A DNA stretch of 36,526 nt from positions 1 to 36,526 of IMG/VR virus record IMGVR_UViG_3300024254_000019; one strand, given 5' to 3'. Every line of letters starts with the position of its first letter. Positions within the stretch are counted from its first letter, which is position 1. Origin of the DNA: a virus (lineage: Duplodnaviria; Caudoviricetes). Both the position numbers and the translations under genes were made by a program. The notes beneath the pieces were generated by a model. That model ran no database searches. It was not told the DNA's origin and worked only from the letters and a program-made list of their open reading frames with translations. Shown one piece after another: positions 3,795-8,075 of the stretch.

Positions 3795-4319
3795 ATGGCA
3801 GGTTATTTATGCTACGTCGTCGTGCTCGATCAGGGCGGCGTGCCAACACATCCAATTGCCCCCGGCGGTCCACCGCCCGGCATCTGGCCTAGTCCGGGAG
3901 TTCCGACGCATCCAATCGCACCCGGTGGGCCACCTCCGGGCTATTGGGGAGGCGTGGCACCTCCGCAGCCGACCCATCCAATCGCGCCTGGTGGCCAGCC
4001 TCCAGGCTATTGGGGAGGTGTTGCACCTCCATTGCCGACGCACCCGATTGCACCCGGCGGACAGCCTCCGGGATACTGGGGAGGCGTGGCGCCCCCACAG
4101 CCAACACCGCCGATCTGGATTCCGATGCCGCCACCGCCGGGAGGCGCAAAGCCGGAACACCCAATCTACTATCCCCCGGTGATCTGGCCGGAGCCGCCGG
4201 AAAAACCGCAACCCGGTGAGCCGCCGGTCGAGGCTAAGATCATCTGGACGCCGCAAACCGGTTGGGGTGTCGTGTTTGTGCCAACGGATAGTGCCACCGT
4301 ACCAACACCGTCGCAGTAG
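3795..4319 (+). CDS. Proline/glycine-rich repeat protein (PTHPIAPGG...YWGGVAPP repeats)
   Basis: GAGGAAGG SD; repeat units conserved in protein while third codon positions vary. Confidence 0.75.
   Translation: MAGYLCYVVVLDQGGVPTHPIAPGGPPPGIWPSPGVPTHPIAPGGPPPGYWGGVAPPQPTHPIAPGGQPPGYWGGVAPPLPTHPIAPGGQPPGYWGGVAPPQPTPPIWIPMPPPPGGAKPEHPIYYPPVIWPEPPEKPQPGEPPVEAKIIWTPQTGWGVVFVPTDSATVPTPSQ
3843..4100 (+). repeat. Four coding tandem repeats (one 60-nt and three 66-nt units)
   Basis: Units begin at 3843, 3903, 3969 and 4035, each encoding PTHPIAPGG. Confidence 0.85.
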
Positions 4320-4456: not shown

Positions 4457-4675
4457 ATGCCGCGTACCGTCCGAGTTAATTTTTCAGTTGAGCCCGAGAT
4501 CGAGCGGGAGCTGCGTGCCCGCGCCGACCGGGAAGGCCGCAGCCTGTCCAACTTCCTGCGCCGGGAATGCCGCAATATTGCTTTCGGTTCACAAGATGTG
4601 AAAGTATCGACCGATCGAATGCCGGGGAGGATCGCCGATGCCACGCGTCGCATTGCCAAAAATTACACCGGATAG
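4457..4675 (+). CDS. Arc/CopG-like ribbon-helix-helix DNA-binding protein
   Basis: GGAG SD; alternating beta strand VRVNFSV then ELRARADREGRSLSNFLR. Confidence 0.75.
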   Translation: MPRTVRVNFSVEPEIERELRARADREGRSLSNFLRRECRNIAFGSQDVKVSTDRMPGRIADATRRIAKNYTG

Positions 4676-5570
4676 GTTCGCGTCCATCTTGAGAGATTTT
4701 CAGGCCAGCGAAGTTTTCAACGGATACAAACCAAACACCAAAGCCGCCTGGCGCCATATCTATCGCCTCGCCGAGCATCCCGACACACTTGGAAGCATAT
4801 ACATCACGCAGATCGATACGGCCGACATTCAGGAATTCTTAGACGCTCTTGCTGACCATCCCTACATGCAACATCGCGGCAAGCGGGCACTGCGAGCCGC
4901 AGAAAAATGGGCGCTGCAGCGCCGACGTCTGCCGCGATCGATCGTGCGCGATGCCGGCTTGGTCAAGGCCGATGGCGCCCGCGAGCCGTGGACATTGGAG
5001 GAGGTCGCGTTAGCCGAGGAACACGCGCGCCCGCATTTTGCGCGCATCATCACGCTTGGCAGCATGACCGGGCAACGACTCGGCGACATGATCCGCATGC
5101 AATGGAAGGATCTGCGAAATTATCGCGGCGAGTTGGGAATCGACGTTCTGCAGGAAAAAACTGGGCTCAAGATGTGGGTCCCGATCATTGAGGAATTTGC
5201 GCCAATTCTGGCGAGCTGGCCGCGCATCGGAAAGTATATCCTCGAGCGCGGCGACGGCTTTCCCTGGACAACCCGCAAGGCGACGTCCGAGGCATGGTGC
5301 AAAGAACGGGCGCGCAATCCGATGTTGGCGCGGATCCGCGAGCGGATGCTGACGCTGCATGGATTGCGGGCGACGGCCTGTCTGCGGCTGCGCGCTGATG
5401 GCCTCTCAAACGCGTTTATAGCCGCGTGCGTCGGCATGTCGGAAAAGATGGTGGACACTTATTGCCGGCGGGAAAAACGCGCCGACACCGCTATCGAGGC
5501 GATGCAGATGCGCAAGCGGAATCGGGCCGCGGACGTGGTGCCATTTCCGGCAAAGGGAACGGGTAAATGA
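4638..5570 (+). CDS. int: Tyrosine recombinase / phage integrase
   Basis: GGAGG SD; TGQRLGD (Arg I), QEKTG (Lys), HGLR (His-x-x-Arg), MVDTY (Tyr). Confidence 0.92.
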   Translation: MPRVALPKITPDRFASILRDFQASEVFNGYKPNTKAAWRHIYRLAEHPDTLGSIYITQIDTADIQEFLDALADHPYMQHRGKRALRAAEKWALQRRRLPRSIVRDAGLVKADGAREPWTLEEVALAEEHARPHFARIITLGSMTGQRLGDMIRMQWKDLRNYRGELGIDVLQEKTGLKMWVPIIEEFAPILASWPRIGKYILERGDGFPWTTRKATSEAWCKERARNPMLARIRERMLTLHGLRATACLRLRADGLSNAFIAACVGMSEKMVDTYCRREKRADTAIEAMQMRKRNRAADVVPFPAKGTGK

Positions 5571-5746
5571 GTGAAATCGATGAACTGCGCGCCACGATCG
5601 AACGCAAGGAACATGGCATCAAAGATCTGCGCACAAGGCTGTCACGCATGCGCACCGAGATCGAGCAATTGCGCGCCGAAAATGACCAACTGAGAAAAGG
5701 TAGCCTATTACCAGTAAAAACTGGGTCTAACCCATTGAAATCATGA
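5567..5746 (+). CDS. Coiled-coil protein, 59 aa (MSEIDELRATIERKE...); not in ORF track
   Basis: ATGA overlap with the integrase stop; heptad pattern; ends TGA 5744-5746 inside the att region. Confidence 0.6.
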   Translation: MSEIDELRATIERKEHGIKDLRTRLSRMRTEIEQLRAENDQLRKGSLLPVKTGSNPLKS

Positions 5747-5798
5747 GAAAACCACGTATTGGAGTGGTACGTGGAAATCAAGTTAAATCAATAAGTTA
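5728..5798. other. Probable attP: palindromic core flanked by inverted IHF-like sites
   Basis: CCACGTA-N9-TACGTGG at 5752-5774; AATCAATAAGTTA (5786-5798) matches WATCAANNNNTTR; inverted near-match at 5728-5740; AT-rich, downstream of int at the strand convergence. Confidence 0.6.
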
Positions 5799-5818
5799 TA
5801 AAGGACGTTTTTAGGTGT

Positions 5819-5959
5819 TTAGGTACAAAAACTCTGAGGATCGTCTTCGCCCCAATAGGTCCAAATCGATTCGAGCAACCATCCGTCATACCCATAGGTC
5901 GAAACCAGCGCATAGCCCAGGCTCCTGGTCTGCGAATAATCCCAAAACCATAGTGGCAC
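5819..5959 (-). CDS. Micro-ORF D, 46 aa, Trp/Tyr-rich (MPLWFWDYSQTRSLGYALVSTYGYDGWLLESIWTYWGEDDPQSFCT)
   Basis: AAGGAG SD from the repeat 6 nt before GTG 5959; TAA at 5819. Confidence 0.55.
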   Translation of the reverse strand: MPLWFWDYSQTRSLGYALVSTYGYDGWLLESIWTYWGEDDPQSFCT

Positions 5960-5965
5960 GATGGG

Positions 5966-6041
5966 CTCCTTTTGTTGTGCCGGTCACAGGCGCCACCTCA
6001 CCGGCTCTAGGCTGGCGTACCAGCCCAGCAACGCTCCTATT
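5966..6041 (-). repeat. 76-bp direct repeat, copy 1
   Basis: Identical to 6202-6277 (ctccttttgttgtgccggtcac...cagcaacgctcctatt). Confidence 0.95.
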
Positions 6042-6195
6042 CTACACACTTGGCCAAGTAGGCCAGGGCAAGTTCGTAGATAAGTTCTGTTTCCGAGTAG
6101 GGAGTCTGCTCGATTACATCTTTGATCGGATCACCGTTTTTCACGTAGACCACGATCTGCTCACAGACCTCTTTGAGGTCGGCAGGGTTTTGCAC
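6037..6195 (-). CDS. Micro-ORF C, 52 aa, acidic helical (MQNPADLKEVCEQIVVYVKNGDPIKDVIEQTPYSETELIYELALAYLAKCVE)
   Basis: AAGGAGG SD then GTG 6195; fills the inter-repeat spacer; TAG supplied by repeat copy 1. Confidence 0.7.
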   Translation of the reverse strand: MQNPADLKEVCEQIVVYVKNGDPIKDVIEQTPYSETELIYELALAYLAKCVE

Positions 6196-6201
6196 TTCAC
6201 C

Positions 6202-6277
6202 CTCCTTTTGTTGTGCCGGTCACAGGCGCCACCTCACCGGCTCTAGGCTGGCGTACCAGCCCAGCAACGCTCCTATT
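6202..6277 (-). repeat. 76-bp direct repeat, copy 2
   Basis: Identical to 5966-6041; period 236 bp. Confidence 0.95.
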
Positions 6278-6362
6278 TCCGGTCGGCCATCGCTGAGATT
6301 ATGCCCATCAGGCCAGAACATATGAACGCGAGCACCATAACCACGATTTGGACGCTGGTCAT
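6273..6362 (-). CDS. Micro-ORF B, 29 aa single-TM peptide (MTSVQIVVMVLAFICSGLMGIISAMADRK)
   Basis: AAGGAG SD 7 nt upstream; hydrophobic core with basic C-terminus; TAG supplied by repeat copy 2. Confidence 0.6.
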   Translation of the reverse strand: MTSVQIVVMVLAFICSGLMGIISAMADRK

Positions 6363-6374
6363 TCATGGGCTCCT

Positions 6375-6473
6375 TTAGCACGCCCAAAACCAAAGCCCTG
6401 TGTGTGGAAGGTATCGGTTACCAATGATACCATCCCCCAGGTAGCGTCCACTTTCCATTCGAGGTTCAGCCAT
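6375..6473 (-). CDS. Micro-ORF A, 32 aa (MAEPRMESGRYLGDGIIGNRYLPHTGLWFWAC)
   Basis: AGGAG SD 6 nt before ATG 6473; its TAA runs directly into the next SD. Confidence 0.5.
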   Translation of the reverse strand: MAEPRMESGRYLGDGIIGNRYLPHTGLWFWAC

Positions 6474-6625
6474 ATGGGGCTCCTATCGCTTCAAGTTCAT
6501 CGTGGGCGTCCCAACCTGCCGCCAGTGGTAGGCCCGTCAGGGGAGGACCAGTCAATCAGCCCCCAACTGCCAAGGCCCGAGCGCGTGGTCCGAGAGGGTC
6601 TGGCACTAACAAAGTTATACGCCCG

Positions 6626-7825
6626 TCAGACCATACGATCATCAACAAATCGCCAATCGCAATAACCTTTCCCATCAATCCCAACCTTGCGGGCTAACGC
6701 CGGAGATAGATCCAGGCCGGCGGCATTGCTCGGCACCTTGCCGGCATTCGGTCCCGTTGGCAAAGGCTGCTCGGTTTCGTAATGCGTTTCTGCCGACGGT
6801 CGTTCGTCGCCGAGCACGTAGTCGTCATCATCGATATTCCACGGGCCGACGTCCCAAATCTCAGCTATTGCGCTCAGCCCAGTGACGCGGTTGAACACCT
6901 TCACCTTCGGTCGCGGCGTGTCCCTCCACTTCCACGGCAAGGCGACATACAAATCCGAGTCATTCAAAAACTTGTCGCCGTCATAGGCCGAATAGTTGGG
7001 ATCGCCCGAGCCGCCAAACACCGTCGTTTCAATGTCCCTATGGTTGGATTGGATCTCCGGTTCGGGCGGTGACTTGTTGTGGAAATTCTCACCATTGATC
7101 ACCAACACCACGTCACCGTGCAGGCTGATCGTCAGGTCAACCAGTTGCTCGCCGCCTTCATGGCCCTTCACCAACGTGCCATTGACGATGACCGTCACGT
7201 CGCCAACCACGTTACTGGTAACCTCGACGCGGTTATCCTCGGTAATCACCTCCGGCGGCTGTTCTGGTTCCGGTGGTTCCTCCGGCATATCATCAAGGTT
7301 GATCCCTGCCATACTCTCGGCGATTGCTTCCACCAGGGCTGCGTAATTTTCGGCATACGCCTCGCAGTCGTGACGACTATCTCCGAAAAAACACTCAAGA
7401 AGTATGGCCGGGGGGTTAGTGTTCACCAAAAACGAGAGCGAATTCGAATATTTTGCCGAACGATCTGGAAGATTCAGCGCCTCCGCCATCGCCGCCGATA
7501 CCTTAGCGGCCAAGGTCTTCTGTGTGTAATACCAGACTTCGCAGCCAACTGGGCCATCACCACCGCCGGCGTTGAGATGGCAACTCACGGCTAGGTCAGC
7601 ATTCTGCTGGTTTGTCCAGTTATTTATATTGGCAAGATATTGCGATTGCGATGTGCTCGTCGTATCGAAAAACATCGGGCATTCGACACCGTGCGCTTCC
7701 AAGAGGGCTGAAACGTCGGTGCAAATTTTCAGGCATTCATCAACCTCGTCACACTCAGGCGGAACCGGATTACCGCGCATGCCCCTTACCTTTTGCGAAT
7801 GCCCGACTGACAATGCTATGCGCAT
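6626..7825 (-). CDS. Endolysin: N-acetylmuramoyl-L-alanine amidase (Amidase_3) with a C-terminal DPBB/RlpA-like domain
   Basis: GGAGG SD; zinc/catalytic motifs SVGH, E, SCHLNA, ILLECFF; C-terminal WDVGPW...DLSPALARKVG. Confidence 0.85.
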   Translation of the reverse strand: MRIALSVGHSQKVRGMRGNPVPPECDEVDECLKICTDVSALLEAHGVECPMFFDTTSTSQSQYLANINNWTNQQNADLAVSCHLNAGGGDGPVGCEVWYYTQKTLAAKVSAAMAEALNLPDRSAKYSNSLSFLVNTNPPAILLECFFGDSRHDCEAYAENYAALVEAIAESMAGINLDDMPEEPPEPEQPPEVITEDNRVEVTSNVVGDVTVIVNGTLVKGHEGGEQLVDLTISLHGDVVLVINGENFHNKSPPEPEIQSNHRDIETTVFGGSGDPNYSAYDGDKFLNDSDLYVALPWKWRDTPRPKVKVFNRVTGLSAIAEIWDVGPWNIDDDDYVLGDERPSAETHYETEQPLPTGPNAGKVPSNAAGLDLSPALARKVGIDGKGYCDWRFVDDRMV

Positions 7826-7853
7826 TTGCTATCCTCCAATCGCCGGAAATAGG

Positions 7854-8075
7854 TCATTGCATGTCCTCCAATATGTGATGAATTTCATCGCAGGTTTCCA
7901 CCACCGAAATAAATCTTCCGTCAGTGGTGTGGATCAGGCAGCGCGTTCCAGGCGCAAAATGATCGGTGCCGCGCGGCGTGCGGAAATCAATGATGCTTTT
8001 GGGATTGAGTTGGATGACTTGATTATCGGGACCGGTGAGCTGAATAAACGCCGTCGCCGCCAGCATGGCAAGCAT
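7854..8075 (-). CDS. FlbD-like small protein, 73 aa
   Basis: FIQLTGPDNQVIQLNPKSI...CLIHTTDGRFISVVETCDEI resembles the FlbD family pattern; TGATG coupling at 8075. Confidence 0.55.
   Translation of the reverse strand: MLAMLAATAFIQLTGPDNQVIQLNPKSIIDFRTPRGTDHFAPGTRCLIHTTDGRFISVVETCDEIHHILEDMQ

Follow-up and report, generated by a model that had tools for sequence, protein, structure and literature searches.

Introduction

In phage genomes, no part is as fluid and as poorly understood as the small accessory genes. We describe here a locus of such genes, a clean natural example of possible shuffling, in a viral record of 36,526 bp (IMG/VR record IMGVR_UViG_3300024254_000019, positions 1 to 36,526; this whole stretch is referred to as the window), in which a 62-bp two-hairpin element occurs twice in the stop/start junctions of an array of very small open reading frames (ORFs). 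Two described systems come closest to it. The promoter-early stem-loop (PeSL) cassettes of T4-type phages (Arbiol et al. 2010, PMC2839356; Comeau et al. 2014, PMC4122927) are elements of virulent myoviruses that combine a strong sigma-70 promoter with a functional terminator and exist in many copies per genome. They surround small ORFans, and the indels that distinguish close relatives end at the motifs. Recombination between neighboring PeSL motifs deletes or inserts an ORF, one crossover having been mapped between the Shine-Dalgarno (SD) and -10 boxes, and the repeat-mediated gain and loss of ORFans together with the formation of mini-circles were shown experimentally (PMC2839356).

The other system consists of the start-associated sequences (SAS) of Cluster K mycobacteriophages, described as the 13-mer GGGATAGGAGCCC, which is located 3-7 nt before start codons and often includes the stop codon of the upstream gene (PMC3203893), and defined operationally as differing from this 13-mer at no more than 2 positions (PMC12699233). 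Cluster K genomes are described as carrying 11-19 SAS each, spread over the non-structural arm. About half of the SAS have an upstream palindromic extension (extended SAS, ESAS), two imperfect 17-bp inverted repeats separated by 4-13 bp and positioned immediately upstream of a whole SAS; in these accounts the extension is wholly absent in TM4 gene 80, unlike in its relatives (PMC3203893).

The locus analyzed here is PeSL-like in its logic and SAS/ESAS-like in its anatomy; it is not a categorically new system, and it connects two literatures that have remained unlinked. We consider, with a rough probability of 0.55, that the 62-bp two-hairpin element sits together with a duplicated AGGAGC in stop/start junctions, that it likely spreads horizontally, and that two copies of it would then serve as homology for the gain or loss of a 236-bp unit.

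Two identical repeats punctuate an array of small genes

A repeat search of the window identified two 76-nt direct repeats, R1 and R2, which are 100% identical, are spaced by 236 nt and bracket ORF C. The initial annotation of this DNA had proposed that an identical 76-bp repeat punctuates four minus-strand micro-ORFs, each repeat supplying the stop codon of one ORF and the SD of the next. Both the coordinates and this geometry were found to be exactly as described, the repeats being located in the B/C and C/D junctions. On the minus strand, each repeat starts with AATAG, of which TAG is the stop codon of B (R2) or C (R1), and ends with AAAAGGAG, 6 nt upstream of the GTG start of C (R2) or D (R1). 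AGGAG is likewise found 6 and 7 nt ahead of the ATG of ORFs A and B. The features of the array are as follows.

5819-5959, minus strand: ORF D, 46 aa, GTG start, rich in Trp and Tyr
5963-5970, minus strand: AGGAGCCC, right half of the junction motif, ahead of ORF D
5966-6041, minus strand: repeat R1, between ORFs C and D, made of the final 9 nt of the C stop/SD junction (AATAGGAGC), the 62-bp element and AGGAG
5971-6032, minus strand: 62-bp element in R1 (GTTGC...CAACAAA), boundaries taken from the form 0 and form 1 joints described below
6037-6195, minus strand: ORF C, 52 aa, GTG start
6202-6277, minus strand: repeat R2, between ORFs B and C, identical to R1
6207-6268, minus strand: 62-bp element in R2, boundaries taken from the same joints
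6273-6362, minus strand: ORF B, 29 aa, ATG start
6367-6379, minus strand: junction motif GCTAAAGGAGCCC between ORFs A and B, containing the TAA stop of A, 10/13 to the SAS consensus
6375-6473, minus strand: ORF A, 32 aa, ATG start
6477-6489, minus strand: SAS-like stop+SD motif GCGATAGGAGCCC, separated by 3 nt from the ATG of ORF A, 12/13 to the Cluster K SAS consensus

When the 61-nt core was used as a pattern allowing up to 3 mismatches, R1 and R2 were the only two sites in the window, against 0 expected from 100 shuffles, and 23-mer matches in the 42-kb source contig were likewise confined to them. The array is in addition punctuated without the repeat by a 10-13-nt stop+SD motif, which the initial annotation had nowhere foreseen: AGGAGCCC occurs three times in the window, each time with A, B or D starting 3-4 nt further on. 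Since ORF C, located between the repeats, recurs in two JGI and four ENA contigs, the two-copy form is real and the duplication is not an assembly artefact. Over the 8259 bp compared (~8.3 kb), one of the JGI contigs (L030, 42,212 bp) shows 100% identity to the window.

The element segregates in no, one or two copies in soil populations

In order to survey natural variants of the locus, contigs from four other soil metagenome runs (X3, X4, X5 and X6) were aligned to window positions 4600-7900. Three alleles of the same junction were found on nearly identical backgrounds: empty, insert, and insert-gene-insert. The last one, B-R-C-R-D (form 2), is that of the window itself. In form 1 (B-R-D), a joint 5965->6202 skips 236 nt, so that one repeat and ORF C are gone; it was carried by 122-nt contigs in X3 and X5, and in X4 the loose end of a 122-nt contig runs from R1 directly into the B-side flank. 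In form 0, B and D are joined without any element through a joint 5964->6269 that skips 304 nt with 6 ambiguous letters, both repeats and ORF C being gone. This joint was found in X6 on a 2582-nt contig (147 nt on the shorter side, depth 7.7) and in X3 and X4 on 54-nt contigs. The depth over ORF C was 0 in X3, X4 and X6.

A coverage hole alone proves nothing, and the assembly of the three forms was hence simulated as unitigs with k=31. A mixture of forms 0 and 1 yielded arms of 54 and 122 nt, whereas the presence of any form 2 yielded arms of 76 and 220 nt. The simulated 54- and 122-nt arms matched the X3 and X4 contigs exactly, and forms 0 and 1 therefore coexist in both of these samples, with depths of about 2-2.7 versus 4.9-7.3. 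The X3 flanks showed no difference from the window, and form 0 occurs on a contig of ~99% identity to it.

Form 1 exceeds form 0 by 68 bp, corresponding to the 62-bp element and a second AGGAGC, and the insert is thus flanked in the window lineage, relative to the empty site, by a 6-bp direct repeat AGGAGC; each 76-bp repeat contains the element and this duplicated SD. The form 0 junction reads ...GAAATAGGAGCCCATC-GTG (also given as AATAGGAGCCCATC-GTG) and is intact, the TAG stop of B overlapping the SD of D. Without the element, AGGAGCCC again adjoins GAAAT, and the resulting GAAATAGGAGCCC between B and D has 11/13 identity to the SAS consensus. We conclude that the 62-bp element is a dispensable, discrete insert bounded by a duplicated SD and segregating in natural populations, and that it does not disrupt the cistrons on either side. 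The initial annotation had predicted that recombination between the repeats would remove a self-contained unit, and a natural form lacking exactly the 236-bp unit of repeat plus ORF C does exist (joint 5965->6202 in X3 and X5); the complete absence of the element in form 0 goes beyond its model. The single copy in X4 carries a single-nucleotide polymorphism (SNP) at 6005, whereas R1 and R2 of the window are identical to each other, which points to a recent event or to gene conversion. Because three natural alleles exist, the mechanism of this variation is directly testable.

Two further joints were observed in X5. One of them, 5972->6032, skips 59 nt, roughly the core of the element; the other, 6073->6270 with one extra letter, connects the end of B to the last 37 nt of ORF C. 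They suggest further allelic forms, possibly including an ORF C remnant devoid of elements.

A copy of the element in an unrelated phage

The initial annotation had also proposed asking, as a test, whether the repeat recurs elsewhere beside different small genes. Exact patterns used at first spanned a variable loop base and gave no match; a conserved 23-mer of the core was used afterwards and identified three loci among metagenome contigs, namely the source contig of the window and two others (L031 and L032). L031 is the IMG/VR record G001, a 100% complete genome of 42,462 bp with a single copy of the element, and L032 is a 4.5-kb variant of it. Both have 57-67 nt in common with the window at 92-96% identity. 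The G001 copy comprises a 57-nt core with 2 substitutions (96% identity) and a small indel at its 3' end. Both substitutions fall on unpaired positions of the predicted fold, one in the loop of hairpin 1 and the other on a junction base; as 13 of the 57 core positions are unpaired, the probability of this occurring by chance is ~0.05, which is suggestive only.

In G001 the element lies in a plus-strand early operon with an exonuclease and a DUF7694 protein, between two ORFs, following the stop codon of the first (46 aa, Cys-rich, with a signal peptide) and preceding the SD of the second (114 aa). It is in sense orientation there, as are all the known insertions (3/3), and at all known sites the upstream stop, the downstream SD and the spacing between SD and start are kept. 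The similarity between the window and G001 flanks is at chance level (1263-1382 of 2000 shuffles score equally well), and apart from the element the two phages share an endolysin homologue alone (41-46% aa identity). No match to the PF00589 integrase family was found in G001, the control being positive in 14/14 genomes. By sequence comparison, these data show the element to have crossed between unrelated phages. The recurrence asked about was thus borne out insofar as the core stands beside different genes in G001; a variable copy number flanking many ORFs was not shown, because three insertion sites are known in all. In the 26 loci around endolysin relatives (35-56% identity), blastn, tblastn and the covariance model detected no counterpart of the repeat or of the micro-ORFs.

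Two observations on this phage may be added. The G001 endolysin gene (L037, 10612-11742) is located ~1.3 kb from the element on the opposite strand. The L032 variant (2590-2690) differs from L031 (3730-3745) by a ~52-nt indel inside a 44-aa ORF, ~250 nt upstream of the element.

Structure of the element

On the sense strand, the element is predicted to fold into two hairpins of 22 and 27 nt that are unrelated to each other. Hairpin 1 has a 9-bp stem with a 4-nt UACG loop and hairpin 2 a 6+4-bp stem; a short GUUG/CAAC stem closes both, and the SD stays single-stranded in the minimum free energy (MFE) fold. The RNA fold has an energy of -31.8 kcal/mol (z -2.2, 6/200 shuffles being as good). As single-stranded DNA (ssDNA), similar folds were obtained on either strand and for the G001 copy (z -2.6 to -3.0). 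A search of Rfam with E up to 10 returned two chance matches (mir-933 and Six3os1_5), both far under gathering scores. Consensus scans of positions 5400-6900 detected no promoter-like site in either repeat, the single site found being at 6326-6298, and no terminator-like site in the repeats, whose hairpins are not followed by a T run; the two terminator-like sites found come after ORF D.

Several other identities were considered for the repeat and dropped. A hammerhead-like ribozyme was dismissed by eye, as the conserved core is missing and Rfam gave no match, and so was a stimulator of frameshifting or readthrough, there being no slippery heptamer and a second TAG 9 codons into the readthrough. 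A tRNA-derived attP fragment was also considered by eye and rejected, as was an HK022 put-like antiterminator, for which the position in the operon is wrong. Finally, plus-strand ORFs crossing the repeat (143 aa and 50 aa) have a coding score of ~-0.13 and are antisense to organized genes.

Coding status of the micro-ORFs

The coding potential of the four micro-ORFs was estimated with a codon-usage log-likelihood trained on 15 long ORFs of the window, which gave 0.37±0.20 per codon in 30-codon windows of real genes and -0.54±0.40 off-frame. This was complemented with natural variants: 40 of 57 variant positions were listed, and the 20 at or above position 5878 were analyzed, the 20 in the integrase region being left out. 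Two of those analyzed are outside ORFs (6005, in the repeat, and 6625, intergenic), and in the endolysin gene 10 of the 11 variant SNPs were synonymous.

The claim that the micro-ORFs are genes held for part of the array. ORF C (score 0.327) is, judged from its codon usage and its homologues, a real gene belonging to a conserved small-protein family. ORF D (0.292; 2/2 SNPs synonymous) is likely coding. ORF B, which appears by eye to form one hydrophobic helix, is plausibly so (0.105, GC content at third codon positions 0.73), with 2/4 SNPs synonymous and the others causing M>L and I>T changes. ORF A scores like non-coding sequence (-0.255, ~3 sd below real-gene windows), its sole SNP causes a G>D change (0/1 synonymous), and its status as a gene appears doubtful.

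Homologues of ORF C with 85% and 77% identity were found, and when the 85-aa homologue (P0003) served as query in an exhaustive search, 12 proteins were obtained with E<=0.001. Half of these (6/12) are small (51-88 aa) and have in common a ~47-aa N-terminal core followed by variable tails, so that the 52-aa ORF C contains the whole conserved part. Its AlphaFold model consists of three helices (pLDDT 85), for which Foldseek returned 0 matches with E<=0.001 in PDB and BFVD. ORF C had no match in Pfam or PHROGs, and matches in the protein atlas were all <0.9 and to unnamed clusters. When metagenome contigs were scanned, the ORF C protein gave one 15-residue match (L029), which was disregarded, and P0003 gave no locus. 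The only relatives of ORF D were identical copies, and no hint to function from family, fold or homology emerged for any of A-D in these searches. The 21 runs listed include no RNA dataset.

Comparison with described systems

The resemblance to PeSL cassettes lies in the presence of short, conserved stem-loop intergenic motifs flanking small ORFans in a plastic region, and in the behavior of the 236-bp unit (R plus ORF C), which the window contains and the X3, X4 and X5 contigs lack, the joint lying within the repeat. The two systems differ in that the present element has neither a promoter-like nor a terminator-like site. Only two copies exist here, in a temperate Bradyrhizobium-phage-like phage, and the insert is a discrete 62 bp accompanied by a 6-bp duplication.

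With the SAS, the array has in common a stop+SD motif a few nt before the starts of small non-structural genes, with 12/13 and 11/13 identity and an upstream TAG. Two of the three junctions fall within the operational definition of SAS, namely the one upstream of A, which has 1 mismatch and lies 3 nt before ATG, and, in form 0, B|D, which has 2 mismatches and lies 3 nt before GTG, whereas the A|B junction, with 3 mismatches, is outside it. Unlike in Cluster K genomes, the three motifs are all in one array, with no genome-wide enrichment. Positions 5700-6700 of the window have no DNA match in 50,697 phage records, and the nearest portal protein, 51% identical, is that of a Bradyrhizobium phage. 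The ESAS of Anaya was noted by eye to begin with GTTG and to end with CAACAA just before GGAGCCC, like the element. The latter differs in being made of two different hairpins and in splitting the SAS. Because the motif is not enriched genome-wide and the phage is unrelated to Cluster K, we do not count the array as a member and read the resemblance as a parallel or, at most, as the outcome of a common functional constraint.

[quoted passage not shown] Like them and like REP/ERIC sequences, the present element is small, non-coding, structured, intercistronic and co-transcribed, is flanked by short direct repeats and shows presence/absence polymorphism. It is however shorter, at 62 bp, than a typical MITE, lacks genuine terminal inverted repeats and has neither a parent IS nor a RAYT. 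So far all its known copies are in phages, two in the window and one in G001, and our searches found none elsewhere. The flanking duplication, AGGAGC (6 bp) in the window lineage and GAG in G001, could be read as a target-site duplication, but microhomology recombination gives the same picture.

The attC sites of integrons consist of a single imperfect hairpin whose 5' end carries ...AAC and whose 3' end carries GTT.... The array resembles an integron in that its small ORFs lack promoters, all point the same way and are each followed by a structured repeat, and in its position beside a tyrosine recombinase. By eye, and relative to that consensus, the element shows instead GTTG...CAAC on either strand and two hairpins. 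The joints are located in the SD microhomology, and G001 has the element without a PF00589 match. The initial annotation had likewise considered that the array does not fit integron rules.

Proposed mechanism and alternative explanations

Hairpins located between short direct repeats are classic slippage substrates. The element would enter or leave a junction through microhomology-mediated or replication-slippage recombination at the SD. Once two copies are present, homologous recombination between the 76-bp repeats would delete or insert the 236-bp unit made of ORF C and one copy, a reaction in which the phage ERF protein or the host RecA could serve. At the RNA level, the element would form an intercistronic structure that leaves the SD unpaired. 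The idea put forward in the initial annotation has precedents in the PeSL cassettes (PMC2839356) and in the SAS/ESAS motifs (PMC3203893).

Several observations weigh against a horizontally spreading junction module. Only 3 insertion sites in 2 phage lineages are known, which makes the element very rare: a 25-mer and a 23-mer searched as exact words in one genome each of 185,579 species gave 0 matches, three core patterns searched in IMG/VR found G001 only, and a covariance model run on 294 kb (endolysin relatives and G001) returned the 4 known copies plus 2 chance-level matches, with no copy in the Bradyrhizobium phage. The direct repeat flanking the G001 copy is GAG only, and the endolysin is the only protein common to G001 and the window. 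No convincing terminal inverted repeats were found beyond GTTG/CAAC (4 nt), nor was a transposase or dedicated recombinase for the element among the annotated ORFs. The alleles were read from short de Bruijn contigs and not from reads, the soil runs date from 2018-2019 and possibly stem from one campaign, and either direction of change, insertion or precise deletion, would be compatible with the alleles.

The main rival to this reading, which may as well be its complement, is a primarily regulatory role. The element would then be a cis-acting RNA or DNA module of SAS/ESAS type, a structured extension upstream of a stop+SD motif that modulates translation or mRNA stability of the flanking micro-genes as an insulator, stabilizer or tuner, as proposed for ESAS; it would be under selection and have moved between phages only incidentally with genes. 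The two SAS matches within the operational definition speak for it, and so do the sense orientation of all three insertions, the unpaired position of both G001 substitutions and the SD left unpaired in the MFE fold. The shared architecture, noted by eye and without a statistic, runs from GTTG through a palindromic body to CAACAA, a few nt, GGAGCCC, 3-7 nt and the start. We nevertheless regard this explanation, taken alone, as possible but rather unlikely. In G001 the single SAS match with 2 mismatches is not before a start, and no SAS-like motif follows the element copy; in the window, the element interrupts the SAS and does not precede a complete one, and its body is made of two separate hairpins and not of a 17-bp inverted-repeat pair. 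SAS-like 13-mers with up to 3 mismatches are not enriched there (5 versus 8.1 expected), the phage is not an actinobacteriophage, and the element is dispensable in nature, form 0 coexisting with form 1 in X3 and X4.

The initial annotation had gone further and seen in the array a set of plug-in effector peptides (anti-defence, exclusion or host takeover) exchanged as 236-bp circles by ERF-mediated annealing of the repeats. An ERF gene is indeed present, the 236-bp unit is present or absent among natural variants, and the interval between lysis genes and integrase is a usual place for accessory genes, a Bradyrhizobium relative having five small genes after its lysozyme; but the repeats bracket one unit only (C), leaving A, B and D unbracketed, none of the peptides gives any functional hint, ORF A is probably not a gene and G001 has a single copy, all of which makes the full model improbable. 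Still less likely is that the hairpins are binding sites of a site-specific recombinase, either integrase arm sites or attC-like sites, that moves the cassette: although the array lies ~250 bp from the 3' end of the tyrosine integrase operon and the element folds as ssDNA on both strands, the lack of a PF00589 integrase in G001, the order of the GTT and AAC ends opposite to attC, the two hairpins in place of one (both by eye) and joints in the AGGAGC microhomology, not within the hairpins, argue against it. Mis-assembly can create short repeats, but we attach next to no weight to a chance duplication or artefact devoid of biological meaning, as ORF C lies between the repeats in independent JGI and ENA assemblies, a second phage carries the core and 0/100 shuffles gave 2 matches.

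Returning to the horizontally spreading junction module, a stronger version of it may be entertained tentatively, though we hold it to be doubtful. The element could be a "junction hopper", an enzyme-less structured module that uses and duplicates the SD as its target and is mobile between phages. If true, it would keep both neighboring cistrons intact while seeding the homology for plugging small genes in and out; with its SAS-like motif, the locus would represent an SAS/ESAS-type system found for the first time outside actinobacteriophages, and no such system before it would have had population-level evidence for a mobile structured part. The locus suggests the idea that the structured extension of SAS-type motifs is an insertion for which the SD provides the microhomology. 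Should translation between cistrons also be insulated or tuned by the element, a compact natural part for operon design would be at hand.

Genomic setting

The window belongs to a temperate soil phage that is Bradyrhizobium-phage-like. Its nearest cultured relative is the temperate Bradyrhizobium phage ppBeUSDA76-2, whose structural genes are syntenic with those of the window at 30-69% aa identity (portal 51%), and since this relative infects Bradyrhizobium the host would probably be an alphaproteobacterium. Blastn of window positions 5700-6700 against the 50,697 phage records found no DNA match, and the window contains no tRNA genes. A long minus-strand operon extends from 35 kb to 5.8 kb and encodes the portal, scaffold, major head, virion and tail proteins and tail fibers, followed in its 3' part by the Amidase_3 endolysin, the micro-ORFs A, B, C and D and two terminator-like hairpins, which are the probable end of this late operon. 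A 59-aa coiled-coil ORF on the plus strand converges on it together with the integrase. That an integrase adjoins the array, as initially annotated, was confirmed by two profiles. The neighboring features are the following.

1247-2263: ERF protein (PF04404, 3e-17)
4638-5570, plus strand: tyrosine integrase (PF00589 and phrog_1), converging on the micro-ORF array
5722-5768, minus strand: two terminator-like hairpins with T runs, just past ORF D (2 found versus 1.6 expected by chance, hence weak)
6626-7825, minus strand: endolysin (Amidase_3 family match), directly upstream of the micro-ORF array in the same operon

The completeness of the record is estimated at 87%. From the coordinates of contig L030, the window is not nested linearly in it and seems to be an 87% piece of a ~42-kb genome with another start point, ~5.7 kb of the phage genome seemingly lying outside. 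The Bradyrhizobium relative (L040, OP596614.1) has its five small genes (57-122 aa) at 36275-38112, after the lysozyme and at the end of the late operon; neither the 62-bp element nor a AGGAGCCC junction was found in this relative.

A second polymorphic spot was observed at 5778-5817, directly past the stop codon of ORF D. In X4, a 229-nt contig has 167 other letters in place of these 40 nt, and in X6 the contigs coming from either side diverge at 5777 and 5818 into unlike sequence. This spot may correspond to the attP core or to a further site of indels or cassettes.

The endolysin and ORF A are separated by a gap of 150 bp, in which a direct repeat of 17 nt with 82% identity is found at 6524-6540 and 6613-6629, 89 bp apart, one copy covering the endolysin stop codon; it may be the relic of a partial duplication. 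The same gap contains a 29-aa ORF (6466-6555) that overlaps the start of ORF A and has a coding score of 0.08 per codon. Further away, a 174-aa ORF without assigned family (3795-4319) contains internal direct repeats at 3837-4114 with a period of ~66 bp, seen as self-matches of 72-82% identity at offsets of 66 and 132.

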